A DNA stretch of 64,000 bases. Origin: Gemmatimonadota bacterium (lineage in GTDB: Bacteria; Gemmatimonadota; Gemmatimonadetes; Gemmatimonadales; GWC2-71-9). Shown piece after piece: positions 11,208 through 33,000 of this stretch; the stretch's first letter is position 1; each line of letters begins with the position of its first letter. The stretch spans positions 497,615 to 561,614 of the forward strand of contig JAJCZX010000030.1 of NCBI GenBank assembly GCA_029262195.1, in the 5' to 3' direction. Below the pieces are notes generated by a model. It did not search any database. It saw nothing but the letters and a program-made list of their open reading frames with translations, and had not been told where the DNA came from. The position numbers and the translations under genes are program-made.

Positions 11208-13220
11208 TTACCCACTTTTTTCGACCTCAACCCTGGCGTCATTAAAACACGCTCCTCCACCAACAACGTTGATGGTGTCGGGACACAGTGCGTTCGACGT
11301 TTTGCCGTTGCCCGACGATTTTCGCCACGCGCCTTTGGGGATCACCACCGTACCCACTCTCACATTTGCATTTATCAGCACCCGGCATTGGACTTCACCC
11401 AGGTTGTTGAACACCCTCACCGGGTCTCTGTCAGCCAGCCCCCTCGAATCGGCATCTTCTTTGTTCATGCTGATGCGCAGCTCTTTATAGGCATACTCTC
11501 CAAATGTCGACGACGTCATTCCGGCAACGGCTGGACTGATCAAGGCCAGCGGATGGTCTTCATCAACCAGTTCGATAAACTCGTAGGGTGAGTCGCCCAG
11601 GCTGGCCGGACACAAATCAATGAGACCGTCTTCAGTCCCGGGAAAGACTGTTTCGAATTGGATTGGTCTGCCCCCAGAAAACTCGTGAAACAGCGGTTCT
11701 CCGGTCTCCAGTTGCTCCGACGTCAGGGTTTGCTCGTTCATCTCAAGCCCGTCGGCGATCGCGCCCAGCCACTCTTGATTAGTCCAGGTGAAGGGTGCAT
11801 CATCCCAACCCATTGCCTGACCCAATTCACGGAAAACTTCGGGATTCGACCTGGACTCTGAAACCGGGTCTATAACGGGTACGACTCCTCCAACTACATA
11901 CGCACCATAACTTCGCCGCACATCGGACTCTTCAAAGAAGGTGGTGGCGGGAAGCACGATGTCGGCGTACGCCACAGTGTCGGTCATGACTTCTTCAAAG
12001 ACAACAGTAAAAAGATCTTCCCTCTCCAAACCCTTGATGACACGATTCTGGTCCGGCATGGTAGCAACGGGGTTACAGTTGTAGACGAAAACGCCTTTCA
12101 ACGGCGGGTCGTTCAATTCAGTGAGCAATCGACCCAGTTGAGACATATTCAATTCGCGTGTGTTCCACTCCACTCCGTTGTTCAACGCAGTTTTGTCAAA
12201 AGAGGTCGCGCCGCTATTTGAACCGGTGTAGCCTCCGCCGACTACACCGAATTTTCCCAACAACGCGGGGATAGCTAGAACGGCCGCGTAGGCCTGTCCC
12301 CCGTTGCGGTTGCGTTCAATGCCCCAACCAGCCCTGATCAAAGAGGGGTTGGCGTTGGCAATCCTGTCGGCGAGTGTCTCAATCACTTCTACGCTGATAC
12401 CCGTTTCGCCCGACGCGCTGGCGAGGTCCCAATTCCTGGCAGCGTCCAAAATCGGGTCCAGCCCTTTCGCGTGCCTGGCGAGAAACTCCTGGGCGAGCAG
12501 GTCTTTTTCTGCCCACTGATGGATAATGGCGAGCACCAACGGGAGGTCAGTACCCGGGCGGACGGGAACGTGTAGATCAATTTCGCCTTCAGAGAAATTG
12601 TTCACCGGATCTACAACTGCCACGAAGGCGCCTCTCTTCCGAGCTTCCTTCAAGACTGGAACGAGATGAATATTCGATGCTTTCGGGTTGGCGCCCCAGA
12701 TCACGATACACTCGGCGTGGACGAAATCTTCGAATGCCACACCTGGCATCTTGCCATACATAGATGACGCCACGGTCGACGATGGTGCCGCGCAAACCGT
12801 TTTCTGAAGACGCGAGGCTCCCAGTCGCGCAAAGTATTGGTCGTCAAGAAAACCGTCGGTCAAAAACCCGTTAGAGCCGCCATAGTTAAACGGCACGATC
12901 GCCTCTCCACCGAATTCGGACACAATTTCAGAAAAACGACGAGTGATCGTTTCTACAGCCTCGTCCCACGAGATTGGTTCGAATTCACCCGAACCTTTGG
13001 GACCAACTCTTCGTTTCGGCGTTCCGACTCTGTCGGGGCCGTAAACCCGCCGACTGAAATTGCGGACTTTTCCACAGACGAACCCTGAGGTGAACTCGCT
13101 GTGCCCGGAAGCCGCGACAGTGGTCGCTTTCCCGTTTTCGACCGTCACTTCCAGCGTGCAGGTGTCCGGACAATCCATGGGACAGGTTGTCAGCCGTGTT
13201 GAGGTTTCACCTTGGGGCAT
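11208..13220 (-). CDS. Molybdopterin (bis-MGD) oxidoreductase family protein, cytoplasmic type
   Basis: 670 aa. N-terminal Fe-S Cys cluster TCPMDCPDTC...C, a long molybdopterin-binding body, and a C-terminal beta-barrel-like domain (VRVFNNLGEVQCRVLINANVRVGTVVIPKG). No twin-arginine signal. Confidence 0.85.
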   Translation of the reverse strand: MPQGETSTRLTTCPMDCPDTCTLEVTVENGKATTVAASGHSEFTSGFVCGKVRNFSRRVYGPDRVGTPKRRVGPKGSGEFEPISWDEAVETITRRFSEIVSEFGGEAIVPFNYGGSNGFLTDGFLDDQYFARLGASRLQKTVCAAPSSTVASSMYGKMPGVAFEDFVHAECIVIWGANPKASNIHLVPVLKEARKRGAFVAVVDPVNNFSEGEIDLHVPVRPGTDLPLVLAIIHQWAEKDLLAQEFLARHAKGLDPILDAARNWDLASASGETGISVEVIETLADRIANANPSLIRAGWGIERNRNGGQAYAAVLAIPALLGKFGVVGGGYTGSNSGATSFDKTALNNGVEWNTRELNMSQLGRLLTELNDPPLKGVFVYNCNPVATMPDQNRVIKGLEREDLFTVVFEEVMTDTVAYADIVLPATTFFEESDVRRSYGAYVVGGVVPVIDPVSESRSNPEVFRELGQAMGWDDAPFTWTNQEWLGAIADGLEMNEQTLTSEQLETGEPLFHEFSGGRPIQFETVFPGTEDGLIDLCPASLGDSPYEFIELVDEDHPLALISPAVAGMTSSTFGEYAYKELRISMNKEDADSRGLADRDPVRVFNNLGEVQCRVLINANVRVGTVVIPKGAWRKSSGNGKTSNALCPDTINVVGGGACFNDARVEVEKSG

Positions 13221-13364: not shown

Positions 13365-14990
13365 TTATCCTGCAGGTATATTGGCGCCATGACAGGCGGT
13401 GCACATAGCGGAGTTACTTCTCCTCAAACGATCGGCGTCGAAGCCGGGACCGTGGGGACTGAACCGCCGCCCCGCCTGGGCAGAGTGACATGACATGCAG
13501 TCCTGTTCTGAGTGACAAGAAACACACGATTCAAGACTTTGCCGCGCCGCGCGACCGTGGCTCACCGAAAAAGCTCTACTTGCATCGTGAAACCCTGAGC
13601 TGAGGGTGCGGCGACCGGAAAGACCTGCATCTACGTGGCAGTCGGTACAGAAAGCCCGGGTGTTGTGGCAGGACTCGCAGGAAACTTCGCGGGCATATGC
13701 TGCAGCGGGATGCCTCGTTATGTAGTCGGCCGTGTGATAGTTGGCAGAAGAGGCTCCGGTTGGAAGGTGACACGAGAGACAGTCCTCCCGCACATGACAA
13801 CTGGCGCAATTCCCTGGATCCGCAATCGCGTCAATCCCGTGCCTTTCTCCAAAATCATTTCCATGAGATACTGGCGGCAGATTCCCCAACCCCTCACTGA
13901 GAAACTCCGTGAGCACCGCTTGTTGCGCTTCGCTGACAGCTCTTAGATTCTGGGCCGAGCCAATAGTAACCCTGTGGCAATCGAGACAATCTTCCCGAAC
14001 GTGGCAGCCAGAACAATTGGCCGGGTCGTCCCCCGCCCTATCTCCGTGGAAATCAGCGACGTTCTCACCATGCCATTCCGGCGTGCTACGCTCAACCGAC
14101 ACACCGATTCCGCGGCCAACCCCCGAGACAGGCAGGCGAGCTACTTCGGTCGGAACGTTCACGTGGCAGGCCAGACAACTTTCCTGGGTGTGACAGGTCG
14201 CGCAGGAGGAAATATCGTTAATAGAGCTCTCACCATGCAGTTCAAGAAACTCTGTCGAATCGTGGTCCGATGGTGCCCGTTCAATTTCCGCCGCAAACAC
14301 AAGTGACCGCGAATCCATCTCCAGGGATTGAATAGCTTCCTGTTCCGGCGCATCGACATGGCATTGGACGCAGTAGTCACGGGCATGACAGGTGGCACAG
14401 CTGGCGGCAATCGTCCCACCTTGATCAGCAAGCTCACCATGTAGTCCGCCGAGAAATTCGGGTTTATCGTGAGAACTCGGTGTCTGAAACTCCGATATAT
14501 CGGATTCCAGGAGACGATCTGCCCTCGACAGGGGCAGGTGGCACACGGAACAGGTTGTGTCAGGTGCTTCAAAATGCTGGGTACTGATTTCGTGACAATC
14601 GAGACAGCGTTGAACATCCGAAAACTTGATGGCCAACCAATCGCCCCCCGACTCGGAATGGCACTGCACACACCTCGTACTCCCTTCGCCCTCAACGGCC
14701 GTTTCAACTTCGGCATGGCGAAAATGATCAAACGCCAGATTCGTTCGGTGAGACTCAGTGGGCGGCTGCCACTCTACCGTTTCTTCGATTTCACCGTCAT
14801 GACAATTTTCGCACGACTCCGGCCTCGGCCAAACGGACCGTTCGGGTTCAACGATTCCAGCGTGACAACTCAGACAACTCGGAAAGAGCCCGCGATGAGC
14901 CTCGTGATCCCAGTGATCCCGCAGACCCAATTCGACGGCACCGTAACCGCTTACCATAATGGCAATCGCAGAGAAGAGCAGCGACCTCAC
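13365..14990 (-). CDS. Multihaem c-type cytochrome, 18 CxxCH motifs (doubled-CXXCH type)
   Basis: 541 aa. I count 18 CxxCH motifs. Many are paired, e.g. CATCHARDYCVQCH, CSGCHVREDCLDCH, CASCHVREDCLSCH, CVSCHSEQDCMSCH. Hydrophobic N-terminus. The ATG overlaps the upstream stop (ATGA, 14987-14990). Confidence 0.9.
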   Translation of the reverse strand: MRSLLFSAIAIMVSGYGAVELGLRDHWDHEAHRGLFPSCLSCHAGIVEPERSVWPRPESCENCHDGEIEETVEWQPPTESHRTNLAFDHFRHAEVETAVEGEGSTRCVQCHSESGGDWLAIKFSDVQRCLDCHEISTQHFEAPDTTCSVCHLPLSRADRLLESDISEFQTPSSHDKPEFLGGLHGELADQGGTIAASCATCHARDYCVQCHVDAPEQEAIQSLEMDSRSLVFAAEIERAPSDHDSTEFLELHGESSINDISSCATCHTQESCLACHVNVPTEVARLPVSGVGRGIGVSVERSTPEWHGENVADFHGDRAGDDPANCSGCHVREDCLDCHRVTIGSAQNLRAVSEAQQAVLTEFLSEGLGNLPPVSHGNDFGERHGIDAIADPGNCASCHVREDCLSCHLPTGASSANYHTADYITRHPAAAYAREVSCESCHNTRAFCTDCHVDAGLSGRRTLSSGFHDASRAFSVSHGRAARQSLESCVSCHSEQDCMSCHSAQAGRRFSPHGPGFDADRLRRSNSAMCTACHGANIPAG

Positions 14991-16489
14991 AAACCGCCTC
15001 CTCTCACCGGGACCTGCAAAATCGCCGGGTGGAGACCGCGCTCGTCAATGCCACTGCCAAAAAACAATCTGAGCCCCGCATCTACCCGCCACTGGTTCCA
15101 ATCGAATTCTCCCGCATCAGGCCGACGGCGCGTTTCGCTATATCTCCCGGCTGAAATGTCCAGCACGGCTCCACTTGGCAATTCAAAATCCGCTTTCAAA
15201 CTATAGAACCACACCTTGGCGTCCCCGAACCGAAACTCCAACGGTCGGCTGAGCACACCTCCAGCTCCCGTTACGGAAAAGCCCTGCCCGTTTCGGAGCT
15301 CGACGGCCCCGTTAAGCCCCTGCGATGAAGCACCAGGACCAAACTCCGCATGGTAGTCGAGGGACACAGTCGTTATTGCGGTGGTATTCACTCTTCCTCC
15401 CACACCAACTCGCCACCCGTCCTCTTCGAAATCTGAGAGCGGAGTATCAGCTTCGTCGTCTGCGAACTCATAAATTTCAGCGCGTCCGTGAATCTCAAGG
15501 TCTCCCAGCGGCCGCACAGAAATTGAAGCGTTGGCAGCATGGTACGGCACAGGACTGAACGCGCCCCAGATAGTCCAAAGATCGAAATGCGGCCGGTAGC
15601 GAATCAAACCCAGGCTCCCCGATAAACTCCGGGTTGCAACAGATGCCGTCATCTCACCGCTCCCAAACCAACCGGCAGCTATGTCGTAATCACCACCTCC
15701 CCGGACAATCAGTTGCGGCAAAACATTGAAACTCCCCGAGAAACCGACGCGCTCGGAGATCAACTGATCCGTTCCCCGATCTACCTCTCGTTCGTACATC
15801 ATCCGCAACTTCGCCGGTCCGTCGACTAACCCAAGGGAGCCTCCGGCCACGAGGTGTCTTTTGCGAGGTTGGAATTCATCGAGTGGACTCACGGCAGAAT
15901 TGTTGATCGGGACGGCAATGCCCCGGGCCAGACCCAGGCCCGCGTACACGTCGAGATCGACCACATCCCCCAGAGTCTTCTTGTTCAGGCGCGCGCCGTC
16001 AAAACCGGTAAAGCCAAATCGGGTGGTGACGTGAGTCCGTCCGAGCTGCAAATTCAAACCGGGCTTGGTGTAGTCAAAGAAGCCCGAAAGCATTTGCAGG
16101 TTCGGGTTGGAACCATTGAATACCCTGGCGTCGCTCAGGTCTACGCCGAAACGTTGCTTCGTCCGGAAACTTACCCCGGGCACTCCAATCCCCCATATGG
16201 CGACATCGGCCGTCGTGATCAACGGTTGCGAACGAAGGTTATTTCCCGGCCTGTAGTATGTGCAGAACACTTGCCCGGAACGACATCTTACCGCAAACCC
16301 ATCCGGCGTCAGGAGTCCACCCACCTGTCCAGCGACAACGTCCGTGGCGACGATGCTGTCGAATTCCACTCCGCGATATGTCGCTGATCTGACGCGCGAA
16401 TCAAGTCGGACCCGGTATCCCTGTCCACACAAAATTCCAGGCCACCCGACGGTCCACGCGAATAACATGACGACGTGAAACGTTTTCAT
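14987..16489 (-). CDS. Putative outer-membrane beta-barrel protein (porin-like partner of the multihaem cytochromes)
   Basis: ORF 14987..16582. I start at ATG 16489 (MKTFHVVMLFAWTVGWPGILCGQG signal peptide), which forms an ATGA overlap with the upstream stop. About 500 aa, rich in alternating amphipathic strands (YRVRLDSRVRSATYRGVEF, KVWFYSLKADFEL, WRVDAGLRLFF). No cysteine or haem motifs. Confidence 0.55.
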   Translation of the reverse strand: MKTFHVVMLFAWTVGWPGILCGQGYRVRLDSRVRSATYRGVEFDSIVATDVVAGQVGGLLTPDGFAVRCRSGQVFCTYYRPGNNLRSQPLITTADVAIWGIGVPGVSFRTKQRFGVDLSDARVFNGSNPNLQMLSGFFDYTKPGLNLQLGRTHVTTRFGFTGFDGARLNKKTLGDVVDLDVYAGLGLARGIAVPINNSAVSPLDEFQPRKRHLVAGGSLGLVDGPAKLRMMYEREVDRGTDQLISERVGFSGSFNVLPQLIVRGGGDYDIAAGWFGSGEMTASVATRSLSGSLGLIRYRPHFDLWTIWGAFSPVPYHAANASISVRPLGDLEIHGRAEIYEFADDEADTPLSDFEEDGWRVGVGGRVNTTAITTVSLDYHAEFGPGASSQGLNGAVELRNGQGFSVTGAGGVLSRPLEFRFGDAKVWFYSLKADFELPSGAVLDISAGRYSETRRRPDAGEFDWNQWRVDAGLRLFFGSGIDERGLHPAILQVPVRGGGL

Positions 16490-17352
16490 GGCGTGGCTCC
16501 ACCGAAGAGCAAAGCCCAAAGAATGAGTCCAATCAACAGCAGACCCACAGATAACCCCAGTAAACCCAACGATACGGACCACAGGTACGCGGCACGCGCC
16601 GGGGGATTGGTAATTTTTCCTTCGAGAGTACCGTCCTTGAGCATCCTCTCGTACTGCAGCGGATGTTCTTCCTTCAGATAGTCCATTGTGGCACGGCCAG
16701 TAAACATCACCACGTCGATTGGAAATTTTTCCGGACGCAGGTTGGCGTTGAAAAAGTGTATGGTAAAAATCACGCCAGCCGCCAACAACGCCTCAATTCC
16801 ATGGACGATAGAGGCAACATTGAAAATCCACCCGGGGAAAACCCTGGCAAACAACTCGGGAAACCATAGCAGCAAACCCGATCCCCCGATTATCGCGACT
16901 CCCCAAAATTCGCCCCAATAATCAAGCTTATCCATGTAGGAAAAACGGTCAAACTGCGGCTTCGGCGCTTTACCCACAAACCATTTAAACGTTTGCAACA
17001 GATCCCGCACGTCATTTGGCTGGGCGACCATGGAGTCCGGGCCCCAAAAAAAACTCTTCCGGTTTTCGCTTTTGGCTATTCGATACCCGAGATTGCCGAT
17101 GTGGATGAAGAAATACAAGAAAGTGATCACCCCGCACACTCTGTGAATCAAACCGGCCGACGCAGACCCGCCCACCAAACGAATCATCCTGGAAGCCCAC
17201 TCCGTCTGCGAGAAAAGAAGAGGGGTACCCGTTACCACCAGACCAAAAAAAGATATGATCACCATGATGTGCAGAGCACGCTCTATAGGAGAGAATCGCA
17301 GAACATACGGCCCCGCTCCGCGATCTGATGAGGCGACCGCTTCCCTAAACAT
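16486..17352 (-). CDS. FdnI/HydC-type (Ni_hydr_CYTB-like) membrane cytochrome b
   Basis: ORF 16486..17388. ATG 17352 gives an 8-nt overlap with the upstream gene. Four to five TM helices with conserved His (ERALHIMVI, GLIHRVCGVITFLYFFIH, ASIVHGIEALLAAGVIFTIHFF), as in dihaem b subunits of formate dehydrogenase and hydrogenase. Confidence 0.7.
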   Translation of the reverse strand: MFREAVASSDRGAGPYVLRFSPIERALHIMVIISFFGLVVTGTPLLFSQTEWASRMIRLVGGSASAGLIHRVCGVITFLYFFIHIGNLGYRIAKSENRKSFFWGPDSMVAQPNDVRDLLQTFKWFVGKAPKPQFDRFSYMDKLDYWGEFWGVAIIGGSGLLLWFPELFARVFPGWIFNVASIVHGIEALLAAGVIFTIHFFNANLRPEKFPIDVVMFTGRATMDYLKEEHPLQYERMLKDGTLEGKITNPPARAAYLWSVSLGLLGLSVGLLLIGLILWALLFGGATP

Positions 17353-18613
17353 TTTCTTCGAGCCTCGCTTTTGATCGCGTTGCCTCAATCAAGGAGCGGG
17401 TGAGCCAAAGTATCGAGTGAATGGCAAAAAAGGACCATACGCTTACCAGAAGCGTCGTCATCAGAGCCCAGGGCCAGAATAACACAGGGTACCGCTCGCG
17501 GTCCCGCATATCCCCGTGAGCGAGATATTTGACGAAATTTGCATTAGCCGCTTCGTGGCACCTGGCGCAGGTCTCAACAAGAGCCAGGGGCGAAACGGAT
17601 GACTCAGGGTTCGACGCAGGAAAGACCTGATGGGCCGTGTGACAGTCGCTGCACTTAGCGGTCAATCCGAATCCAAGTCCCGTCACCTGACCGTGGTACG
17701 TGTCAAAGTAGGTCTCATACACTCGTTCATGACAACCGCCGCAGGTTTCGGCAAGTCCAACAAACCATCGAGGTTCGTCTGATCGGACTATGGAATGGGC
17801 CGTGTGGCAGTCCGTGCAATCCGGGAGATCAGCTGCGTCCGTTACTCCTGCGGTGTCAACATGCATTGGAGAACGATGAACGTCGGCCGGGATATCATGG
17901 CACTCCCCACAGGTCTCCGTGATATGGGTCCTGTTGACCGTCGATGCTGGGGAGTCGGCGGGAAGGACGAAATGGGCTCCGTGACAATCGTTGCACGTGG
18001 CTGAAACGACCAGTCCGGCCTGCTCGACCGCTACGCCGTGGACCGTTTCGTGATACTGCTCGGCAGCCGTCCGGGCAAGCTCTTGCTCCGGCCCCACGAA
18101 ATAGGTTGCAAGAATCTCGGGGTCTGTGTGGCAACTGCCGCACAGCACCGCAACGTTGAGAGCGTTGGTTGGCGACGCGGGGTCAGCAGATGACAACACG
18201 TTGTGGGCAGTGTGGCAGCTAACGCATCCTGGTGTTGCCATCCCGTCGCCCAAGTGCACAGAGCCAGACCATTCAAACCCCTCGACTTCATGGCAAGACA
18301 CACAATTCACCGGCTCGACTTCCTCAACGTGGGGATAGCCCTCTGCCTCAGACTCATGACAATCGGCGCAGTCCAGATCGGAATGGCTGGTTCCCACCAG
18401 CACGGATTTCGGCACCATGAACGAATGCTCTCTCGTACCAGGGATATTCGCTACAAACTCTGCATCGCCGTGGCACTTTTCGCAGCTCACCTCGGGATCC
18501 TGCGCGTAAGATTTAGCCGGTTGTAGCAGCACCATCAAAAGAGCCGTGGCGCACAAACCCGAGAACCGACCGATTGAGTCGAAAAGCGGGCTGGAAAGGC
18601 GGTGGGCGCGCAT
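17345..18613 (-). CDS. Multihaem c-type cytochrome, 11 CxxCH motifs, C-terminal membrane anchor
   Basis: 422 aa. Signal peptide (ALLMVLLQPAKSYAQ), 11 CxxCH motifs counted, and a C-terminal TM helix (VLFWPWALMTTLLVSVWSFFAIHSILWL). Confidence 0.9.
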   Translation of the reverse strand: MRAHRLSSPLFDSIGRFSGLCATALLMVLLQPAKSYAQDPEVSCEKCHGDAEFVANIPGTREHSFMVPKSVLVGTSHSDLDCADCHESEAEGYPHVEEVEPVNCVSCHEVEGFEWSGSVHLGDGMATPGCVSCHTAHNVLSSADPASPTNALNVAVLCGSCHTDPEILATYFVGPEQELARTAAEQYHETVHGVAVEQAGLVVSATCNDCHGAHFVLPADSPASTVNRTHITETCGECHDIPADVHRSPMHVDTAGVTDAADLPDCTDCHTAHSIVRSDEPRWFVGLAETCGGCHERVYETYFDTYHGQVTGLGFGLTAKCSDCHTAHQVFPASNPESSVSPLALVETCARCHEAANANFVKYLAHGDMRDRERYPVLFWPWALMTTLLVSVWSFFAIHSILWLTRSLIEATRSKARLEENV

Positions 18614-18623
18614 CCAATCACCT

Positions 18624-20645
18624 TCACTCGCCGCCCGCCGAATCGGGATCGGCGGTCGTAGGAACCGTTACTCCCCCTACGGACATGGGCGGTAACTGAT
18701 GACATTCAGCACAGGCCTTGGGTTCATAATGGTCCTGGATCTCAATGTGGCAAGACAGGCAAACCGGTCTTGTCCAGCGATCAATCGTCTGGCCCTCAAC
18801 CTCGTGGCAATCGGAACAGGAAACATGGTCGTTCCTACTGTGGTCTTCCATGGCACCGTTTACATGGCAGCTGACACATGTCGTCTCCGGTTCATGGTGC
18901 TCCACATGGCAGCTCTGGCAATCCAATTCAGTTGCGGCCATTTCAGGGGGAGTGTGGCAATCCCGGCAGTCAAGGTCAGCCTGGCGGTGGACATCGTGCT
19001 CGAAAAACCCCGTTTCCGTCCGTGCAGGAGCTGTCGGGGCGCCGCCGGCTCCTTCGTGACAGGTGGCGCAGTTAGGCGGATCCACCACCGGATGGTGACA
19101 GTCATTGCAGGCTGAAAGGTCCTCGAATACTGTCCCTCCGTGTTCTTCGAGAGGAGTATGACAATCTTCACAGGCGAGACCCGCCGTCAACACATGGCTG
19201 TCGTGCTCAAAGTTGTTGCCCCGAAAACTCACAGACCTCCTTTCTTCACCAAGATGGCATTCCAGGCATGAATTTTCGCTTACCGGAGGGCCTAGATCCA
19301 GGTCACCAAGATGGTAGTCGAGCCTCCCCTCTTGAACCGCTCTGGTCAGCAAGGTCACAGCAGAACGCAACAGCTCGTCCGAGTACCCTATGTTGTGTGA
19401 ACTTTTCCCCACCCGGACGAACTCAACATTTTCTTCCGCAAGAGAAAGGAGTGAATCTGCCAACGACCTGGTCCGTATCGGTGCGGTAGGAAGAGCATGG
19501 CGTACTCCTTCCAACCGATTGGTAACCTGCCTGGTCCGCCGCTCCATCTCATCCTGCCATGACGGGAGAATGTTCGCGTACCTGATGCCGTGACACGACA
19601 TGCACGAGGCCTCACCAGCTACGTCAACCTCTGCGTGCCCTTCGATTGCGCGGGGCAATTCATGACATGCCTCGCATGACACCCGGGCGAGAAACATCGA
19701 ACTCGGTTGGTCAACAGCGTCATGTCCGCCCCGCCCTGCATACATCTGCTGCTGACTCGTGTGAACACCGCGATGACAGGAGCCACATTGGAGTTCGAAC
19801 GTAGAAGCCAGCGACACAACACTGTGTTGAATGGGAGTATGGCATTGCCCACACTCGATACTCCGTTCTTCGATATGGGCCACGTGCATGCGATCGACGT
19901 CAGACGATTGCTCCAATCGCTCTGTGTCATTGTGGCAATTAAAGCAACGTGATTCCTCAACCGACCCATCCCCCCGGGTGACATCTGCATGACAGGATAC
20001 ACACGAAACCATGTCTTCCACATACCGAGGATGGTCGACGATCGACCCGTCCAGGGTCGTGAGCGCCTCTGTCGCGGTGTGACACCCGACGCATCCAACT
20101 GGCGGCGTGACAAAATCGTCTCCGAAATGGCACAGATTGCAGGTAACCTGTGTTACTGCGACGTGCTCTCCCTGTACAATTTGAGAGTGGCAACTGGTGC
20201 ACCGGAGGTCTATACCGAGCCGTTGCTCTTCAAGGTGGGGAGTATGGTCAAAAGTGACCCCATTGTAGTCGACGAGACCCTCAATCTTCCGACTGGTGTG
20301 GCAGCCGGACCGGAGGCATGCGGCATCCTCTATCTCGGCCCAGGGTTTGAGGGCATAGGTGCCGGTGAAGTACTTCACCACCTGGTTTGCGGCCGCGACT
20401 TTTCCCATCGCTTCTGCCTTAATGCCAGGGGCGTAGTGACATTCGATGCACTTCACCTCGCTGTGGGCAGATGTGGCCCACGACTGGTAGTAGGGCTCCA
20501 TTAGATGGCAATTCCTACAAAACCCGGGTTGCGCCGAATACTCCACGAACCCAACTGTGCTGACTAATCCCGCAATCGTAGCCAGAACACCCAGCTGAAT
20601 AAGTATTTTCAACGGCCTTCGCATCCGACTCCAGCGGGATTTCAT
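18624..20645 (-). CDS. NapC/NirT-anchored giant multihaem c-type cytochrome, 21 CxxCH + 1 CX4CH
   Basis: ORF 18624..20747. I start at ATG 20645 (MKSRWSRMRRPLKILIQLGVLATIAGLV), which avoids overlap with the upstream gene. The N-terminal TM helix followed by FCRNCH...SAHSEVKCIECH is the NapC/NirT/NrfH quinol-dehydrogenase signature. 21 CxxCH motifs counted, plus CLRSGCH. Confidence 0.9.
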   Translation of the reverse strand: MKSRWSRMRRPLKILIQLGVLATIAGLVSTVGFVEYSAQPGFCRNCHLMEPYYQSWATSAHSEVKCIECHYAPGIKAEAMGKVAAANQVVKYFTGTYALKPWAEIEDAACLRSGCHTSRKIEGLVDYNGVTFDHTPHLEEQRLGIDLRCTSCHSQIVQGEHVAVTQVTCNLCHFGDDFVTPPVGCVGCHTATEALTTLDGSIVDHPRYVEDMVSCVSCHADVTRGDGSVEESRCFNCHNDTERLEQSSDVDRMHVAHIEERSIECGQCHTPIQHSVVSLASTFELQCGSCHRGVHTSQQQMYAGRGGHDAVDQPSSMFLARVSCEACHELPRAIEGHAEVDVAGEASCMSCHGIRYANILPSWQDEMERRTRQVTNRLEGVRHALPTAPIRTRSLADSLLSLAEENVEFVRVGKSSHNIGYSDELLRSAVTLLTRAVQEGRLDYHLGDLDLGPPVSENSCLECHLGEERRSVSFRGNNFEHDSHVLTAGLACEDCHTPLEEHGGTVFEDLSACNDCHHPVVDPPNCATCHEGAGGAPTAPARTETGFFEHDVHRQADLDCRDCHTPPEMAATELDCQSCHVEHHEPETTCVSCHVNGAMEDHSRNDHVSCSDCHEVEGQTIDRWTRPVCLSCHIEIQDHYEPKACAECHQLPPMSVGGVTVPTTADPDSAGGE

Positions 20646-20656
20646 GCCGACGCCCC

Positions 20657-21880
20657 CTAAGCCGATTCGCGCAGTTTGAATACCGCCAGAGCAATCCCCG
20701 AAAGGGCAAAAAACCAGATAGGCAGTAGCATCAATTTGTGCTCCCACCGTCTCTCAGCTCGTATCTCAGCGGTATTCCGGACCTCGTTCGAATTAGACGC
20801 AACCCGACGACCGAGCTCTTCGAGGACATCAACATCCATGCGATGTTGCGCCATACGCATTTGTTCGTAGTAGGTATTCGCGGTCTGATACCTGAAAAGA
20901 GCGTCTGCTACATTTTGGCCGGCTAATCTCAGTTCTGTGATCGCTTCCTCGGCCCCTTCTACATCCGACTCCGCCGCAATCATTAACGACTCGATTTCAT
21001 CTCCAAGGGTGCCAGCCGAAGTCCCTGCTTCATGGCAAGCACCACATACTTCCGAAATATCGGCATTGGGAATTGCTTCGCTATCGTGGCTCACATGGCA
21101 GGATAGGCAGGCGCTCATTTCTCCCGTATTGGTCGCCTCCCCATGGGGCCCATCCAGAAACGCCCGTCCCACAAGTTCATGACATTCCGCACAGACGTTC
21201 ACGACTTCTTGGGGTCTCGCCGGAAGGGCGGCGTGCGACCCATGACAGCCAATACAGGTAGGAGAAGAAAAATTTTGTTCTTCGTACAGAGCTCTTCCGT
21301 GCGCCCCCGAAACAAAATCCGCATATTGGGTCGTCGAAAGATCATAGCGGCCCATCAGCGCCGCATCCTCATGGCACCGGCGACACGTTTCAGCGATTTG
21401 TGTCGGGTACACATTACTCCGGGCATCTGTTTCCCGTCGGACCAGATGGGCGTCATGGCAATCGGTGCAAGTGGGTGCGTCATTATTGCCTTCCACCAAC
21501 AGCGATTGGCCGTGGCGACTAGTCCGAAACTCGGCCAACTGACCCGATGGCAAGCCGTACTGCCGCATCTGGTCAGCGTCAGAGTGACAGGACGCGCACA
21601 GAGTAACTGTTTCTACCTTGTTCGGCGCACCGATGAACCGACCCGAGTGGGCGCTGGGTAACTCGAAGGATCGAGGGTTGCCACCGTGACAATCATGACA
21701 ACGCATTCCGTAATCAGCGTGAATGCCCTCAAGAAAATTCGCTCGGTTTTCAGAGTGGCAGGTGACACACCCGTAAGATGTGTCTATACGGTCTCGGTTG
21801 GACTGTGCCAGAAGGTTTCCAGGAGAAGAAACTACAACCAAAGCTCCGACCGCAAAAAAAAGACGCAAGCGTTTCATCAC
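20657..21880 (-). CDS. Multihaem c-type cytochrome, 9 CxxCH motifs, C-terminal anchor (occupies the cytochrome c1 position of the bc-type module)
   Basis: 407 aa. Signal peptide, 9 CxxCH motifs counted, a helical C-terminal region, then a TM helix (LMLLPIWFFALSGIALAVF). ATGA overlap with the cytochrome b stop. Confidence 0.9.
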   Translation of the reverse strand: MMKRLRLFFAVGALVVVSSPGNLLAQSNRDRIDTSYGCVTCHSENRANFLEGIHADYGMRCHDCHGGNPRSFELPSAHSGRFIGAPNKVETVTLCASCHSDADQMRQYGLPSGQLAEFRTSRHGQSLLVEGNNDAPTCTDCHDAHLVRRETDARSNVYPTQIAETCRRCHEDAALMGRYDLSTTQYADFVSGAHGRALYEEQNFSSPTCIGCHGSHAALPARPQEVVNVCAECHELVGRAFLDGPHGEATNTGEMSACLSCHVSHDSEAIPNADISEVCGACHEAGTSAGTLGDEIESLMIAAESDVEGAEEAITELRLAGQNVADALFRYQTANTYYEQMRMAQHRMDVDVLEELGRRVASNSNEVRNTAEIRAERRWEHKLMLLPIWFFALSGIALAVFKLRESA

Positions 21881-23151
21881 TCTCCCCCCTGCGGTGTTCC
21901 GGCCGCCGGTGGCGTGGGACCAACGTTAGGAAGGCGAATGGGGTTTAGATCAACCTCGGATGAGTCCACGACCTCCGGAGGCCGAGCTATGTCAACGAGT
22001 GCCTGTTCGCCGCTACCTGCTGCCCAGAAGACCATGAACATGGCCAACAAGCCGAACGCGATCAAAAGCGATCCGACACGCTTGCCCGGGCGTAGGTCTG
22101 GATTTCGGTCCGTCAAAGGAAGAAGAATCATCGTCAGGCCGACCAGACCTGCCAGAGGGAGTCCCCAGGCACCGAGGTATTTGATTGCAGTAAGCGAAAC
22201 GCTCACCAGTCCCCAGGTGGGCACAATCGTCTCAGGCGGTACCGCAGGATCTGCCAGCGGAGCGAAGGGTCTCGGAAACAACGACGCCAATGAAAACACT
22301 ATAGCAAGCACCAACACCGAAAGGATAAACGAGCGCAGGAGATGCTGGGGGTAGAACTTCATTCCCTCCCCCTCGTGTTTTTTTACGGGTGAGGGAGCCA
22401 CGCCGTGCCGACGGACGAGAAGGAAATGAAAGGTTAGAAGTCCGAACACAATCCATGGCAACAAGACCGCGTGAAGTGCGAAATACCGACTCAACGTCGC
22501 GCCAGAAACCACAGCATCGCCCGTAAGGAATTCAGCGGCTAATCCGCCGAAAATGGGGAGTGCTTCGACCCACCCGAGAATCTCCGTCACGGTCCAGTAG
22601 GCCCACTGATCCCACGGAAGGAGAACACCGGTTGCCCCAAACGCCAGTACCATTCCCAGAAGCAGAACACCGACCAGCCAATTGGTTTCCCGCGGCGACT
22701 TGTAGGCCGCATCGTAGAAAATTCGCAGCATGTGCAGCAGCATCGCAACGACCAGTAGATTGGCCGTCCAGTGGTGAAGATCGCGAACCAACCAGCCAAA
22801 AGGAATCTCAGTTACCATGTGCTGGATACTCTGGTACGCCTCGGCGGCGGAGGGGCGGTAATAAAAAGTCATCAGCACCCCGCTGACTACCTGAACGATG
22901 AACAACAGGTAGGTTACTCCCCCGAATGCATGGCGCCATCCCGCGTGCGGAGGCAAACGGTAATCCAGCGCTTTTTTCAAAGCAGCGTCAATCCTCAATC
23001 GACGATCAATCGGACCATAAAGCAGTCCCAGAAAACGAGCCGCTCCCAAGACACTTGAATCTGTGCTCGCTTTGAGGTCCTCTACTCTCCGCCCCACTGA
23101 CGCGCGCAACGAATCCTTGTTTTCTCTGCGTCTATCCGAGTCTTTAACCAT
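21877..23151 (-). CDS. Cytochrome b of a bc/b6f-type complex (fused cytochrome b6 + subunit IV)
   Basis: 424 aa. FGWLVRDLHHWTANLLVVAMLLHMLRIF...SPRETNWLVGV...LLPWDQWAYW...RYFALHAVLLPWIVFGLLTFHFLLVRRHG aligns without gaps to cytochrome b6. Haem ligand pairs are H126/H140 and H227/H242. The subunit-IV-like part has PTWG where PEWY is expected. Confidence 0.9.
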   Translation of the reverse strand: MVKDSDRRRENKDSLRASVGRRVEDLKASTDSSVLGAARFLGLLYGPIDRRLRIDAALKKALDYRLPPHAGWRHAFGGVTYLLFIVQVVSGVLMTFYYRPSAAEAYQSIQHMVTEIPFGWLVRDLHHWTANLLVVAMLLHMLRIFYDAAYKSPRETNWLVGVLLLGMVLAFGATGVLLPWDQWAYWTVTEILGWVEALPIFGGLAAEFLTGDAVVSGATLSRYFALHAVLLPWIVFGLLTFHFLLVRRHGVAPSPVKKHEGEGMKFYPQHLLRSFILSVLVLAIVFSLASLFPRPFAPLADPAVPPETIVPTWGLVSVSLTAIKYLGAWGLPLAGLVGLTMILLPLTDRNPDLRPGKRVGSLLIAFGLLAMFMVFWAAGSGEQALVDIARPPEVVDSSEVDLNPIRLPNVGPTPPAAGTPQGGE

Positions 23152-23719
23152 TTTGGACCGAAACGAAAACGTATTCTCCCCGTAAGAACACGGAGTATCT
23201 AGAGAGTGGTTCTACCGAAAGACCCCGGACGACTCGGCCGTTTAGGTCATATTCGGCATGTTGACACGGGGAGACGACTCTTCGAGATGGCGCGTCCCAA
23301 TTCAACAGACACCCATCGCCCGAACCAGTGCCCTGAAGAGCAACGTAGCGATCCTCAGTAACGCGGACAACAAGTATCGTGCGTTGTCCCCATGTTATCG
23401 TACGACTACCTCCCACAGGGAAATTGGCCTGTTTGACAACCTGCACGGCCGTCTGCAATTCCGGAATCTCGAGATGTTCTGAGGGCAAGAGATACAACGC
23501 GGTACCCAACCCGAACATGACGGCAATCAAAACTATTATACTGGCCAAAAGCGTCTCCGTGAATCGGAAACGCCCCAACCATGTTGTGAATTGGCGCGAA
23601 GGCGGTGGCACCTCTTCGCCAGCGCCAGGCTGAAGGGGGTCCCTTAAGCCTCTTTCCTTCGTACTACCTGACTCTGATTTCATGACGTTCCCATTGGAGT
23701 AGTCCGGAACAGAATCCAA
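23144..23719 (-). CDS. Rieske-fold membrane-anchored protein lacking the canonical [2Fe-2S] ligands
   Basis: 191 aa (alternative ATG at 23683). One TM helix, then ...ITWGQRTILVVR...GSGDGCLLNWDAPSRRVVSPCQHAEYDLNGRVVRGLSVEPL. This aligns without gaps to CTHLGC..W-x8-CPCHGS.YD..G.VVRGPAP. 8-nt overlap with the cytochrome b start. Confidence 0.6.
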   Translation of the reverse strand: MDSVPDYSNGNVMKSESGSTKERGLRDPLQPGAGEEVPPPSRQFTTWLGRFRFTETLLASIIVLIAVMFGLGTALYLLPSEHLEIPELQTAVQVVKQANFPVGGSRTITWGQRTILVVRVTEDRYVALQGTGSGDGCLLNWDAPSRRVVSPCQHAEYDLNGRVVRGLSVEPLSRYSVFLRGEYVFVSVQNG

Positions 23720-23827: not shown

Positions 23828-23858
23828 ATTGTGAGCCCCACCCATCGGGGCTCACAAT
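23828..23858 (-). terminator. Strong GC-rich hairpin 17 nt after the stop of the lipoprotein cytochrome gene (no U-tract)
   Basis: ATTGTGAGCCCC-(7 nt)-GGGGCTCACAAT is a perfect 12-bp stem. No T-run follows on the minus strand, so it could be a processing/stability or attenuating element rather than a classical terminator. Confidence 0.45.
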
Positions 23859-23874: not shown

Positions 23875-25314
23875 CTACAATTCCAGATCCAGAGACACCC
23901 TCGTCGCCGGAGCGGAAAGTCCATACTCGGCTCGGAGAGCCTTGATACTCGCCACCAGCACCTGCTCCGCGAAGAACGGGTTGTGCGTAGAAGTGCCAGG
24001 CAACTCCCCGAGGCGGGCGTTGAACCAGGCCCCGTCCGCAACCGTGAATACTCCATCGCGGCTGTCCCGCTCGCCAGCCGGGGCAAGAAGGATGAGGGAA
24101 TCTACTTCAGCCACCAGGGCAGCGATTCTGTTGAGTGCGGTCGTGTAAGCTGTGCGCGCCGCATCGGCCCCAAGGTGGCACCCACTCGTTGTGCAGCCTG
24201 AGAACTGTCTATCCGGAAGGTTGCATGTTTGATCCGTGGTGGGGATTCCCTGAGCATCAACACATGGGATCGCCAGGAACAGGTGTCCTGTGGAATTGAA
24301 GAGGAAATCTCCGGTTTCGTCGTCGTTGACCTCAAACGACGACACGTGACACGCCGCGCAGGTTCTTTCGTTCCCCTCGCTGCCGTGGGAGCCCACAATA
24401 CGATCCGCCAGCGGTTCAAAGCTGGGAGGTATCCAACCAACGCTTTCGCCAAGAAGTAGCGGACCTTCCGGGGAATGCGGTCCACGCAACGTCGAAGATT
24501 CTAGATCCGGCTGCGCGCGTTTGTAGTGGCATTTCATGCACAGGTTGGTTGCCTGTTCCGGTACATCAATCGGATATCTCAGTTGACCTTCGAAGGCAGA
24601 CCCGTGCGGATCGTGGCAGACTGCGCAGGTGATCCCAGCGTAATCGTCAACCGCCGCTGTGGCTTCCAGAAACTCCGGCTCAACCCCCCAGGCATCCAAC
24701 GCCCCTTGCGCGGTATGGCAATTAAGACACTCATCCTCGGGGTCCCCTGCCGCGTGGCTTATGACGAAACCAGCTGGTTCAGCATGAGCCGATTGAGACC
24801 ATTCTTCGGCAAACGGATGATGGGTACCGGAATGGCATTCGCCGCACCCGTTCAACGAATCGACCAAGATCGACGGAAGAGGCTGGCCCGCGTCAGGGTT
24901 TTCGACGTGCGCCAATCCCGGGCCGTGGCAACTTTCGCACTGGACATCGAAGTAAGACGTATCTGACACCAGATTGTGCCCGGCGGCTTCAGATACAAAA
25001 TTCCCCAATTCGCTAACAGTATGACAGCCTTCACAGAAAACCTGGGAATGCCCAGAACCTTCCAATGTGGCCCATGCATCTGCGTGAGCGGTATTCTCCC
25101 AACTCGCCTGAACACCGACGTGGCAGTTCCCGCAGGTGGTTACCTTCTCGGTCTCGTCGAAATACCCGAGGAAACCCGCTATCGAATCGGGCGGGGGATT
25201 AAAAAGTTCTCTGTCCTGAAAGACGATTTTTTCGTCTGTACAAGCTGTCCCGACAATCATCAATCCAAGGGCAGCCACCGTGGCCCGTAGAGCGCCAATT
25301 CTATGCAGTTTCAT
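23875..25314 (-). CDS. Multihaem c-type cytochrome, probable lipoprotein, 8 CxxCH + 1 CX4CH
   Basis: 479 aa. N-terminus MKLHRIGALRATVAALGLMIVGTAC (signal plus lipobox-like Cys). 8 CxxCH motifs counted, plus CTTSGCH. Confidence 0.9.
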   Translation of the reverse strand: MKLHRIGALRATVAALGLMIVGTACTDEKIVFQDRELFNPPPDSIAGFLGYFDETEKVTTCGNCHVGVQASWENTAHADAWATLEGSGHSQVFCEGCHTVSELGNFVSEAAGHNLVSDTSYFDVQCESCHGPGLAHVENPDAGQPLPSILVDSLNGCGECHSGTHHPFAEEWSQSAHAEPAGFVISHAAGDPEDECLNCHTAQGALDAWGVEPEFLEATAAVDDYAGITCAVCHDPHGSAFEGQLRYPIDVPEQATNLCMKCHYKRAQPDLESSTLRGPHSPEGPLLLGESVGWIPPSFEPLADRIVGSHGSEGNERTCAACHVSSFEVNDDETGDFLFNSTGHLFLAIPCVDAQGIPTTDQTCNLPDRQFSGCTTSGCHLGADAARTAYTTALNRIAALVAEVDSLILLAPAGERDSRDGVFTVADGAWFNARLGELPGTSTHNPFFAEQVLVASIKALRAEYGLSAPATRVSLDLEL

Positions 25315-30092: not shown

Positions 30093-33000
30093 TCAGGGAT
30101 TCACATTCACAACCATGACCCCGTTGGGCGTCTGAACCACACCGGGAATGGTCGCGGAAACCGTCGTAGCACCCTGTGCCAATGGGTCGAATTCAACCCC
30201 TCCACCCAACACGGTGGACGGGGAACTCGAAGCTGTCGCCGGGATGGTTACCGTCACCGATCCGGCCCCTGGGACTGCAGACGTGACCAATTGGCCGATA
30301 GACGCTGCACTGCTCGTTATGGTCGCGGTGAGCGCCGGACCTCCTACTCGAATTGACTGGATCGCTACCGAATTCCCGCTCTGGTAGCCCAGCGTCACCA
30401 GGAAAAGATCGTTTGCGCCCCCGACGGTCGTAAACGTATTCAAGCCGCTCAGGATAAGGGCGGCTGGCGAGATTGTCACTGTCGCGGAGTCACTGACGAA
30501 TCCGGTCACCGTTGCAGTCACGGTCACGCCAGTATTCGACCCAAGGTTCAACGCCTGCGCGTAGTATGTGGCGCGATACGAACCATCGGCAAGATTGATC
30601 TGCAAAGTGCCGGTCCCCGGAGTGGCTGCGTCAGGGGCAAGCAGAAGCAAGCTGGAATCGGAACTGGTAAGCGTCACAGTGACGCCGCCATGGAATCGGC
30701 TGCTAGCCCCGAGGTCAACACAGCTATTGCAGCTACCCTGCAACCCGCCTCCGACAGTCATCCCTGATAGGGTTATCGCGGGCGATGAAATCGCAACATC
30801 CCAATCCGAATTCGGAGTGGGTGCGTGCCCCGGAATTGTGGCTGAGACTGTGGTCATCCCAGCTGTGAGGGGATCCAAGGCGACCCCACCCGGCGCAACC
30901 GTCGTCGGCGTTTGGAACAGTCCGGGCGCAATATCCATCATTATGGATGCCGCAGTATCGGCGTTCGTCACCAGGATTCCGACAGATGGTTGGGAAGTCA
31001 CGACCGTCGTCGTCAAAGTAGGACCGCCCATCCGCACTGCCTGGGCAAACACGCCGTTGCCGCTGGGCCTACCCACCCTCACGTAAAACGGGTCATCCAG
31101 GGAAAGAGTTGTTACGTTGTTCGTCTGGACACCAATAACATCCAGGGCAGGTTGTACAACCGTCATGACAGCGGATCCGTTGCTGAATCCGACATCTGCG
31201 ATCGCGTCAACCGTGACCGAGCCAGTCTGCCCAAGTGCCGTGCCCTGGACATAATATGAAACCAGGTATTGCTGATCCGGCACGAAGATCTGGATGGAAT
31301 CAGAGCCAGCTGTGTTGGCGTCAGGTGATACTAGCAACACCCCAGGATTGGAACTCCTTAGCGTAAGGGTTACTCCACCGTGGCCGCGGTTCTGTATGTT
31401 GAGGTTCACGCAGTTCGAACACTGTTGCTGCAAACCAGCGCCCACCGTTTGGGTTCCCATTGAAATGGCAGGAGCGGTTGTCGTAACCACGAAGTCTGAA
31501 CTCGGTGTCGAGATGAAACCCGGGATGGTCGCGGCTACGGTGGTTGTATCGGCTGTCAGAGCATCAAACGCCACTCCACCCGGGGCAACCGTGGTGGGTG
31601 AGTTGGATGCCCTCACAGGAATGGTTGCCGTCACCGAGCCTGCAGTAATCGCGTTAGTAACCAATTGGCCCACGCTGGGCCGCGAGCTGGTAAAGGTAAC
31701 TGTTGCGGCTTGCCCTCCAGCCCGGATCGCCTGAGTCACGACCCCGCTACCAGACGGATACCCAACCCGCGCGTAAAACGGATCGTCCGCCGATAGCGTT
31801 GTCAAACCTGATGTCTGAAGACCAATTAGTTGGACCCCGGGTTGCCGCACTGAAACCGTTGCAGTATCGGGAACGAACAAAGCTGGCGACGTCGTGACGA
31901 TTACCTGGGCAGAAACGATGCCCGTATCCGCAGCAGCTTCGACCCCCTGCGCCCAGTAGCTGAAGAAATAACTTGAATCCGGCAGGAATACCTGAATAGA
32001 ATCGGTCCCCGGCGTCGAATCGTTCGGGGAAATTAGGAGTGCGGTCGGGTCTGCACTTCTTACGGTAACCGTGACGCCCCCATGGGCCCGGTTCTGGACC
32101 AGAAGATTGACGCAATTACTGCATACCTGTTGGAGTCCCGTTCCAACCGTAGTGCCCGAGGCAGTGAGCGCAGGGGCGGTTGTAGTAACCACCCAATCGG
32201 AATTCGGAGTCGAAATCAGGTTGGGAACGCTCGCGGCGATCGTAGTCGTATCAGCAGTCAACGGATCAAACGCAACTCCACCCGGTGCCACTGTCGTGGG
32301 TGAATTGGAGGCGCCTACTCCAATCGTCACCGTCACCACGGAATCCGTGGTGGTATTGGTCACAAGTTGCCCAACTGCCGGTTGCGAACTCCTGATAGTT
32401 GCAGTGAGAGCTTGCCCGCCAACCCGAATAGGCTGCGAGGCCACTCCGTTACCACTTGGATACCCTACACGTACGTAAAATGGATCGTCAGGAGAAAGCG
32501 TTGTCAAACCTGTCGTCGATAGCGACACCAGGTCTATCGCGGCCTGTCTTACAGATGTGGTGCCCGTGTCAGGCTGGAAGATTGCGGGGCTCGTCGTGAC
32601 CACAACTCCGGCAGCAACATTGCCTGTGTCGGCAGCAAACTCGACACCATTCGCTGTATAGCTGAAGAAATATTGCTGGTCCGGAAGGAAGACCTGAATT
32701 GAATCGGTGCCCGCCGTCAGATTGTTTGGCGAAAGCAACAGCGCTCCCGGATCCAGACTCCTTACGGTGACCGTAACTCCTCCGTGAGCTCGATTTTGAA
32801 TACCGAGATTCACGCAACCGTTGCAATTCTGTTGTAAGCCTGTGCCAACAGTGGTACCGGAAGCCGTTATCGTCGGTGCGGTCGTGGTCACTACCCGATC
32901 AGCATTCGGAGTCATGATGACGCCGGGAATTGACGCCGCAATCGTCGTCGTGTCCGCCAAAAGCGGATCGAAGGCCACGCCGCCCGTCGCAACCGTTGTC

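Follow-up and report, generated by a model that had tools for sequence, protein, structure and literature searches.

Introduction

Research on extracellular electron transfer has long asked how electrons get from quinol dehydrogenases to outer-membrane conduits over a periplasm of ~20 nm. In Geobacter, soluble trihaem carriers cross the periplasm. The subject of this report is a single gene, encoding a 22-haem cytochrome, in a 64,000-nucleotide stretch of a Gemmatimonadota bacterium genome (GenBank assembly GCA_029262195.1, contig JAJCZX010000030.1, positions 497,615 to 561,614 of the forward strand; hereafter the window). The family to which this protein belongs joins covalently a quinol head of the NrfH type, a block of the NrfA/OcwA type and c7-type units, modules that are separate in model organisms. 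We favour, at a probability of roughly 60%, its reading as a menaquinol-linked inner-membrane cytochrome composed of an NrfH-type head, a relay block and a periplasmic wire. The family is a testable candidate for carrier-free periplasmic wiring.

The described systems closest to this protein resemble different parts of it. NrfH is a separate subunit of 140-160 residues that docks NrfA non-covalently. Its Met49 replaces His as the ligand of haem 1, and the quinol lies beside haem 1, with Asp89 (PMC3279761); its Lys82, equivalent to CymA Lys91, binds 2-heptyl-4-hydroxyquinoline N-oxide (HQNO) and is essential (PMC2762525). ImcH of Geobacter sulfurreducens combines a NapC/NirT/NrfH-like head, including the conserved Lys, with extra haems, has up to three transmembrane helices, and hands electrons to soluble trihaem carriers of the PpcA type. 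It carries 7 haems, its homologues carry 5-9, and its structural model predicts that a Gln is an axial ligand at haem 1 (bioRxiv 10.1101/2023.05.03.539133). OcwA of the Gram-positive bacterium Thermincola potens is a nonahaem terminal reductase of the cell surface; it spans ~90 Å per monomer and 180 Å as a dimer, and its haems 5-9 superimpose on the pentahaem core of NrfA (PMC6703420).

Long periplasmic cytochromes have been described as well. The title of Pokkuluri 2011, as given in the references of PMC9250108, describes GSU1996 as extended and 12 nm long, and the periplasmic PCC3 cytochromes, with a median of 21 haems, have been proposed to span the periplasm (PMC5566968). The 10 haems of MtrA extend over ~100 Å (PMC3279761, PMC5566968). 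The Shewanella periplasm measures 235 ± 37 Å, a distance that the combined length of CymA and MtrA does not cover (PMC3279761).

A Single Gene with 22 Haem Motifs

The gene and the parts of its product are as follows.

18624..20645, minus strand: complete open reading frame with ATG start, 673 residues plus stop, 22 haem c motifs
20538..20606, minus strand: N-terminal transmembrane anchor, residues ~14-36 (hydropathy; AlphaFold2 helix)
20166..20645, minus strand: NrfH/NapC/NirT-type tetrahaem head, residues 1-160 (PF03264; TIGR03153; phmmer; Foldseek)
20499-20501, minus strand: signature Met49, in CxxCHxM (C43-R-N-C-H47-L-M49)
20400-20402, minus strand: signature Lys82, in register with NrfH
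19581..20165, minus strand: eight-haem block of the OcwA/NrfA/MccA superfamily, residues 161-355, haems 5-12 (Protein Data Bank (PDB) profile; Foldseek)
19311..19580, minus strand: three-helix bundle, residues 356-445, with conserved His417-Asn418 (AlphaFold2; OcwA alignment)
18624..19310, minus strand: variable tail, residues 446-673, 10 CxxCH (haems 13-22), c7/c3-type units (PDB profile; Pfam)

An earlier reading of the DNA from its letters alone, called here the original prediction, had claimed 21 CxxCH motifs plus CLRSGCH, and all of them were located in the translation. Eleven CxxCH lie at residues 43, 66, 149, 169, 185, 215, 234, 265, 287, 324 and 348, ten more at residues 460, 492, 513, 526, 560, 576, 590, 610, 629 and 645, and the 22nd site, CLRSGCH (CX4CH), at residue 110. 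Every one of the 44 cysteines sits inside these 22 motifs. The protein's own Cys/His-rich composition leads to a chance expectation of ~0.2 CxxCH, so the array did not arise by chance, and all 22 motifs are invariant among 48 Gemmatimonadota homologues of 50-60% identity. The N-terminal pattern described before is also present, as FCRNCH (residues 42-47), 11 residues and SAHSEVKCIECH (59-70); its "x18" is the spacing from His47 to Cys66.

The start codon is either Met1 or Met8: a public protein of 100% identity (P0001, NCBI-derived) begins at Met8 and has 666 residues, and a longer alternative beginning with GTG at 20747 would run into the upstream gene. Open reading frames of 81-172 residues on the plus strand inside the gene were rejected as spurious, the minus-strand frame being conserved in more than 1,000 homologues.

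Hydropathy revealed a single hydrophobic helix at about residues 11-36, preceded by a basic N-terminus, and a helix was modelled by AlphaFold2 (AF2) at residues 2-37 with a predicted local distance difference test (pLDDT) score of 80-96. Since cytoplasmic-type domains (receiver, CBS, cyclic-nucleotide (cNMP)-binding) precede the transmembrane helix in relatives, an N-in topology fits. The AF2 model used here was built on 141 diverse sequences (pLDDT 83; predicted template-modelling score, pTM, 0.70); an earlier run on a shallow alignment of 48 sequences (50-60% identity) reached a pLDDT of 59 and was discarded.

A protein of this composition might be an artefact, in which an NrfH-like gene and a separate multihaem cytochrome gene were joined by a missed frameshift or a lost stop. 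This is extremely improbable. More than 1,100 homologues, of 650-700 residues and from independent assemblies and sources (NCBI, JGI, ENA, Logan), cover 95-100% of the query, relatives with the same architecture are encoded in at least 477 genomes in a scan of species-representative genomes, and the AF2 model is continuous along the chain. The question, raised together with the original prediction, is thereby answered: the open reading frame is one gene, and its length is conserved across more than 1,000 homologues.

The NrfH-Type Head

The four haems of the head, at Cys43, Cys66, Cys110 (CLRSGCH) and Cys149, all lie within residues 43-153. The NapC/NirT character proposed earlier for the N-terminus is borne out by Pfam PF03264 (NapC/NirT), matched with 44.9 bits where the cutoff is 24.1 (residues 12-99, corresponding to profile positions 8-101 of 174) and recovered in 22 of 22 diverse family members. 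The best NCBIfam model was TIGR03153 (NrfH), aligned over model positions 11-136 of 138 at E 8.8e-13; in the same scan TorC scored more weakly than NrfH, NapC was absent, and no ImcH-named model was among the matches.

A phmmer search of the PDB found NrfH of D. vulgaris (2j7a_C, E 1e-7). In this alignment Cys43/Cys46/His47/Met49, His61, Cys66/Cys69/His70 and Lys82 carry the same numbers as in NrfH, and CLRSGCH falls on CKACH, the haem 3 motif of NrfH. Residue and motif counts were taken from a family alignment of 141 members, in which the haem 3 position is CX4CH in 124 and CX2CH in 17. Judged by this alignment CLRSGCH is a genuine haem site, because the aligned position is canonical CX2CH in those 17 members. 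Met49 is present in 141/141, Asp107 in 135/141 and Lys82 in 129/141 (91%). The best structural match for the head was NrfH chain 2vr0_F, to which Foldseek aligned the AF2 model with a template-modelling score of 0.61.

The head therefore shares with NrfH a single N-terminal transmembrane helix, four haems in the same order, the CxxCHxM motif and an identical position of Lys82. It differs in its CX4CH at haem 3, in the replacement of Asp89, mostly by Gln, and in the lack of an nrfA gene nearby; most of all, the chain continues covalently into 18 more haems instead of docking a partner. ImcH shares the head, the Lys and the presence of further haems. The protein described here differs from it in having one transmembrane helix, 22 haems and an OcwA-type block, and in carrying attached units like PpcA (c7) where ImcH relies on soluble carriers.

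The Eight-Haem Block and the Helix Bundle

The family profile matched Thermincola OcwA (6i5b) in the PDB at E 5e-28, over profile positions 230-450, and matched a Carboxydothermus multihaem cytochrome (6qvm) and MccA as well. NrfA chains 1fs9, 1qdb, 2j7a_A and 8bcx were matched at E 1e-6 to 2e-5, and the MccA and NrfA chain matches together lie at about E 1e-5 to 1e-12. OcwA was also the top Foldseek match of the AF2 model, and one relative (P0270) reaches the Pfam cutoff for NrfA (PF02335). Haems 8-12 pair with OcwA haems 5-9 across residues ~205-445, bundle included, in an alignment that contains the motifs PSxM(F/Y) and G-V-H-N; His417-Asn418, of the latter motif, is found in 139/141 members.

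Conserved candidate axial ligands are His61, His134, His137, His161, His205, His254, His257, His274, His295 and His417, together with Met317, a set exactly sufficient to hexacoordinate haems 2-12. OcwA and our protein thus have in common the block of OcwA haems 5-9, the bundle and the positions of the distal-pocket His. OcwA is a soluble or surface protein and, unlike our protein, lacks both quinol head and tail; it has two demonstrated open haems, whereas the ligand count predicted here allows none.

A haem-free helical insert had been claimed for this region. The stretch without haem motifs is real (residues 353-459, 107 residues), as are its helices, modelled at residues 359-383, 390-413 and 419-439 with a pLDDT of 96-98, and the word insert is what has to be given up. 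The shortest relatives, of 430-480 residues with 11 CxxCH and one CX4CH, end straight after the bundle (21/141 aligned members), so the supposed insert is the ancestral C-terminal domain of a 12-haem core. From its sequence relationships this core, an NrfH-like tetrahaem head followed by eight haems, would be in effect an NrfH-NrfA-type pair in one polypeptide.

The C-Terminal Tail

The tail aligned with the dodecahaem cytochrome GSU1996 (3ov0) at E 2e-12 over residues 460-598 in the PDB profile search, with further matches to Hmc, nine-haem cytochrome c, ActA and PpcA/c7, and with Pfam Cytochrome_C7 at 75.6 bits. For its 10 haems, 11 additional His are invariant among the 48 Gemmatimonadota homologues. 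Confidence of the AF2 model is poor over the last ~90 residues, with a pLDDT below 60 past residue ~580.

Tail length is the variable feature of the family. Of the 141 members, 21 have no haem motif beyond the bundle, 12 have 3, 56 have 6, 10 have 9 and 28, mostly from Gemmatimonadota, have 10; larger tails have 12, 15, 17 or 19. As the counts are mostly multiples of three, growth has proceeded mainly by c7-like trihaem units, and the family is a natural example of the modular growth of cytochromes, its tails mostly lengthened by such units.

The c7-type trihaem repeats of GSU1996 align with the tail only. Proteins of the GSU1996 type and PCC3 proteins are soluble wires made of repeats alone, with neither the membrane quinol head nor the NrfA-like block of our protein, which showed no homology to the PCC3 proteins, these being of low complexity. 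The original prediction, a quinol head fused directly to a long haem wire, is supported in its first half, the head being of the NrfH type. Its second half needs revision: the ~500 residues that follow are not a uniform wire, residues ~160-445 forming the OcwA/NrfA-type block and bundle and only residues ~446-673 an added c7-type tail.

Size and Spread of the Family

A search of 5.8 billion proteins returned 1,153 matches at E≤1e-5. The best 120 of these were 650-730 residues long with 93-100% query coverage, and the named sources among them were metagenome-assembled genomes (MAGs) of Gemmatimonadota/Gemmatimonadales. When representatives clustered at 50% identity were searched exhaustively, 359 clusters matched at E<1e-30. 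Members were found in Gemmatimonadota, Acidobacteriota/Thermoanaerobaculia, Aminicenantes, Neomarinimicrobiota, Bacteroidota/Ignavibacteria, Binatia, Latescibacterota, Eisenbacteria, Zixibacteria, Bipolaricaulia, WOR-3 and others. The family is thus spread over hundreds of uncultured species of soils and sediments in many phyla, and it gives a handle on the respiratory abilities of Gemmatimonadota.

Haem counts of the homologues, proposed as a check of the original prediction, range from 12 to ~31 per protein. Together with the seven haems of ImcH and the 5-9 of its homologues, they make the earlier statement that NapC/NirT proteins stop at 4-5 haems too strict. Family members bear generic names ("NapC/NirT family cytochrome c", "cytochrome c3 family protein", "nitrate/TMAO reductase-like tetraheme cytochrome c subunit"). 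Another large homology search and a cluster look-up yielded no cultured or specifically named member, only MAG-derived proteins with generic names, and nothing specific on this architecture or its operon was found in the searchable literature, where PCC3 and ImcH come near in concept and are different proteins. An NrfH head with an OcwA/NrfA block and a c7 wire is, as far as that literature goes, an undescribed architecture built of known kinds.

Relatives with N-terminal extensions (P0153, P0270, P0188, P0233 and P0264) were inspected. The 12-haem relative P0153 has a response-regulator receiver domain before the transmembrane helix and the 12-haem relative P0270 has CBS and cNMP-binding domains there; in others, proteins of 1321-1441 residues, ~890 residues contain no recognised domain. 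The domain content suggests that the 12-haem module may sometimes be used for, or controlled by, signalling.

The Cytochrome Operon

The gene lies in a minus-strand operon whose junctions overlap or measure ~10 nucleotides and which, judging by these junctions, is translationally coupled. In the order of transcription the genes are A, the Rieske-fold gene, the cytochrome b gene, D (9-haem), the gene under study, F (11-haem), G, H and I, and the cluster totals ~69 haem motifs.

23875..25314, minus strand: gene A, putative lipoprotein cytochrome with 8-9 haems, head of the cluster (profile scans)
23144..23719, minus strand: Rieske-fold protein, likely start Met13 (nucleotide 23683) (weak PF00355, 16.8 bits)
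21877..23151, minus strand: cytochrome b, b6/ExtP-like (PF00033, 164.8 bits)
20657..21880, minus strand: gene D, 9-haem cytochrome (signal peptide, then a helical region, then a C-terminal transmembrane anchor)
17345..18613, minus strand: gene F, 11-haem cytochrome with C-terminal transmembrane anchor, 10 nucleotides past the stop of the gene under study
16486..17388, minus strand: gene G, FdnI/cytochrome b561-like membrane cytochrome b (PF01292, 48.9 bits)
13365..16489, minus strand: genes H (531 residues, no family) and I (18-haem cytochrome)

The stop codon of gene D lies 11 nucleotides ahead of the ATG of the gene under study. The cytochrome b scored best on b6 and ExtP models, reaching 205 bits on NF040969 (ExtP), under the cutoff of that model. 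Genes D, F and H found no match in the PDB. Gene H, with ~500 residues after its signal peptide, has no Pfam, NCBIfam or PDB relative. Gene I contains six closely paired motifs of the form CxxCH-x4/5-CxxCH. Both are co-located with the gene under study in many Gemmatimonadota loci, and together they may form an outer-membrane conduit.

This neighbourhood is conserved. The 9-haem gene directly precedes the gene under study in 46/46 Gemmatimonadota loci and in 17/30 loci of other phyla, and a cytochrome b gene lies upstream in 35/37 and 10/19, respectively. A 12-haem member in a Tectomicrobia MAG also adjoins Rieske and cytochrome b genes. The FdnI-like b is present in 11 of the 12 loci outside Gemmatimonadota with full flanks, and in three loci, from Aminicenantes, Bipolaricaulia and Acidobacteria (L049, L070 and L076), genes F and G are one fused open reading frame. 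From their predicted products, F and G look like a split quinol oxidoreductase of the CbcL type; as in Geobacter, the home of CbcL, a single organism or operon holds several quinone modules. Taken together, the gene content of the operon looks like that of an envelope-crossing (extracellular-type) electron transfer pathway.

Altered Rieske and Cytochrome b Motifs

The gene under study follows directly upon a gene set similar to that of known Rieske/cytochrome b complexes (the Geobacter Cbc6/ExtMNOPQS type and the anammox bc complexes). We know of no described bc-type complex with an NrfH-headed subunit of 12-22 haems. The Rieske boxes were compared in 56 loci, those of Gemmatimonadota drawn from L001-L047 and the others from L048-L080. 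They are degenerate in 44/44 Gemmatimonadota loci, with the patterns S-P-x-D-G-C and S-P-C-x-[YHF] (GDGCLLNW and SPCQHAEY in the window), whereas orthologues of other phyla retain C-[TS]-H-x-x-C and C-[PA]-C-H. On this pattern the Gemmatimonadota protein is probably a cluster-less "pseudo-Rieske". The Gemmatimonadota cytochrome b retains the four His for two b haems; in the window the PEWY motif of its Qo site is replaced by PTWG, and the same position reads S-T-W-V in other Gemmatimonadota and PEW[YF] or PPWY in other phyla. The canonical Qo/iron-sulfur route would thus have been lost in the very lineage with the longest and most tightly linked NrfH-headed protein. A cluster-less Rieske protein beside a PEWY-less cytochrome b suggests that scaffolds of the bc type can be repurposed.

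One locus labelled as an Akkermansiaceae MAG (L033, contig CAXMRU010000218.1) contains the complete operon of the Gemmatimonadota type, including a homologue 51% identical to our protein and Rieske boxes degenerate as in Gemmatimonadota. Its placement is likely a binning error, or else reflects horizontal transfer.

Proposed Role and Alternatives

In the reading we favour, menaquinol would be oxidised at the NrfH-type haem 1, beside the conserved lysine, with protons released to the periplasmic side. The step would be electroneutral, as in NrfH, CymA and ImcH. Electrons would then pass through the OcwA-like block, which would most likely serve as a relay only and perhaps as a point of oligomerisation. 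From there the c7-type tail, whose 10 further bis-His haems would extend the chain into the periplasm, would deliver them to the operon's other multihaem cytochromes. Flow might also be reversed, with menaquinone reduced during electron uptake. We infer that quinol is oxidised at haem 1 and that haems 2-22 are hexacoordinate, and likewise infer which way electrons flow and how far the tail reaches. By arithmetic from the lengths of OcwA, GSU1996 and MtrA, a fully extended chain of 22 haems could approach the 235 ± 37 Å of the Shewanella periplasm.

Several observations weigh against this reading. The score of 48.5 bits on TIGR03153 is far under the 134.2-bit equivalog cutoff, so the head is NrfH-like and the protein is no NrfH orthologue. 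Asp89 of NrfH is not conserved: of the 141 members, 85 have Gln at the aligned position 88, 24 have Met and 9 have Glu, and the conserved acidic residue is a different one, Asp107. The Gln of our protein parallels the one predicted at haem 1 of ImcH. In the block, His205 and His295 align with OcwA His282 and His380, which are non-ligating pocket residues at two open, reactive haems, and OcwA has those open haems even though its His would suffice for bis-His coordination throughout (PMC6703420). By alignment, His205 and His295 could equally be axial ligands or pocket residues, and an open catalytic haem in the block may exist. At the outer membrane, gene H reaches OMP_b-brl in Pfam at a non-significant E of 0.22; a beta-barrel or "porin" label and an outer-membrane role are an unsupported guess. 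Every family member seen comes from a MAG or a single-amplified genome. Finally, the gene is almost never found without an adjoining b-type quinone module, and quinol turnover could therefore occur there instead. In this context of b-type modules and other membrane-anchored multihaem cytochromes, a bridge of the kind originally predicted would not stand alone.

The last point opens the most serious alternative, which we consider possible though clearly the weaker explanation: the protein would be an output hub, the c-type subunit that collects and distributes electrons from b-cytochrome quinol oxidoreductases. Quinol would be oxidised by the cytochrome b/Rieske-like and 9-haem module, by the FdnI-like b and 11-haem module, or by both, and the protein would act as cytochrome c1 or f does in bc complexes, its head mainly an anchor and docking site. 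Such a role would suit the order Rieske, cytochrome b, 9-haem gene and gene under study, which holds in 35-46 of 37-46 loci from Gemmatimonadota and is found again in Acidobacteriota, Latescibacterota, Eisenbacteria, Binatia, Bipolaricaulia and Tectomicrobia, as well as the FdnI-like b with its multihaem partner, present where cytochrome b is missing (11/12 full-flank loci outside Gemmatimonadota); junctions of 10-11 nucleotides or overlaps suggest co-translation and complex formation. An invariant Met49 and a Lys82 kept at 91% across phyla, however, are hard to explain for a mere anchor. The loss of the Rieske ligands and of PEWY in Gemmatimonadota impairs the canonical Qo route precisely where linkage is tightest, and no sequence relation to cytochrome c1 or f was seen.

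A catalytic function is unlikely. Here the 12-haem core would be a single-chain enzyme of the NrfH-NrfA/ONR/OcwA type, in which an open haem passes electrons from quinol to a small substrate (nitrite, hydroxylamine, sulfite, a metal chelate or a shuttle) while the tail feeds or drains additional electrons. The open haem would be haem 8 (Cys234), the counterpart of haem 5 in OcwA and haem 1 in NrfA. The homology to OcwA and NrfA is significant and includes the helix bundle, the haem 8 motif aligns with OcwA haem 5, the invariant His295 and His205 align with the distal-pocket His380 and His282 of OcwA's two open haems, and OcwA reduces nitrite and hydroxylamine in vitro (PMC6703420). Yet our protein contains no CxxCK, the active-site haem motif of NrfA, and the NrfA matches cover only haems 11-12 and the bundle, stopping short of the active-site region. 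Its conserved ligands exactly suffice for full hexacoordination, the operon holds no nitrogen- or sulfur-cycle genes in a context made up of cytochromes, and a variable wire tail with membrane anchoring suits electron relay better.

The loss of the Qo/iron-sulfur route in Gemmatimonadota raises a bolder idea, to which we give about as little credence as to the catalytic function: the Gemmatimonadota operon would encode a new respiratory complex with the NrfH-type haem 1 site as its quinol-oxidising centre on the periplasmic side. Its partners would be the PEWY-less cytochrome b and the Rieske-fold subunit without a 2Fe-2S cluster. Some electrons would follow the covalently attached haem wire towards the outer membrane and the b haems would provide a transmembrane path, making up a Q-cycle-like or redox-loop device that works without iron-sulfur protein or cytochrome c1 and is wired directly to the outside of the cell. 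In a wider view, the 12-haem core would be a single-chain NrfH-NrfA ancestor, a "missing link" of the multihaem reductases.

Other Features of the Window

A molybdopterin oxidoreductase gene (11208-13220, minus strand) lies 144 nucleotides downstream of the cytochrome operon. Its product is cytoplasmic, without a twin-arginine translocation (Tat) signal, has an N-terminal 4Fe-4S motif, and scored under the cutoff of every named subfamily. An Rfam scan of the 10-27 kb part of the window gave no match, and shuffled sequence yielded at least as many promoter and terminator sites as the real one. The 155-nucleotide gap between gene A and the Rieske-like gene contains a perfect inverted repeat with a 12-bp stem, ATTGTGAGCCCC...GGGGCTCACAAT (23828-23858, both strands), a possible internal terminator, attenuator or protein-binding site. 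A very large open reading frame of 2,398 residues (30093-37289, minus strand) has repeated bacterial immunoglobulin-like (Big_1) domains as its sole Pfam match.

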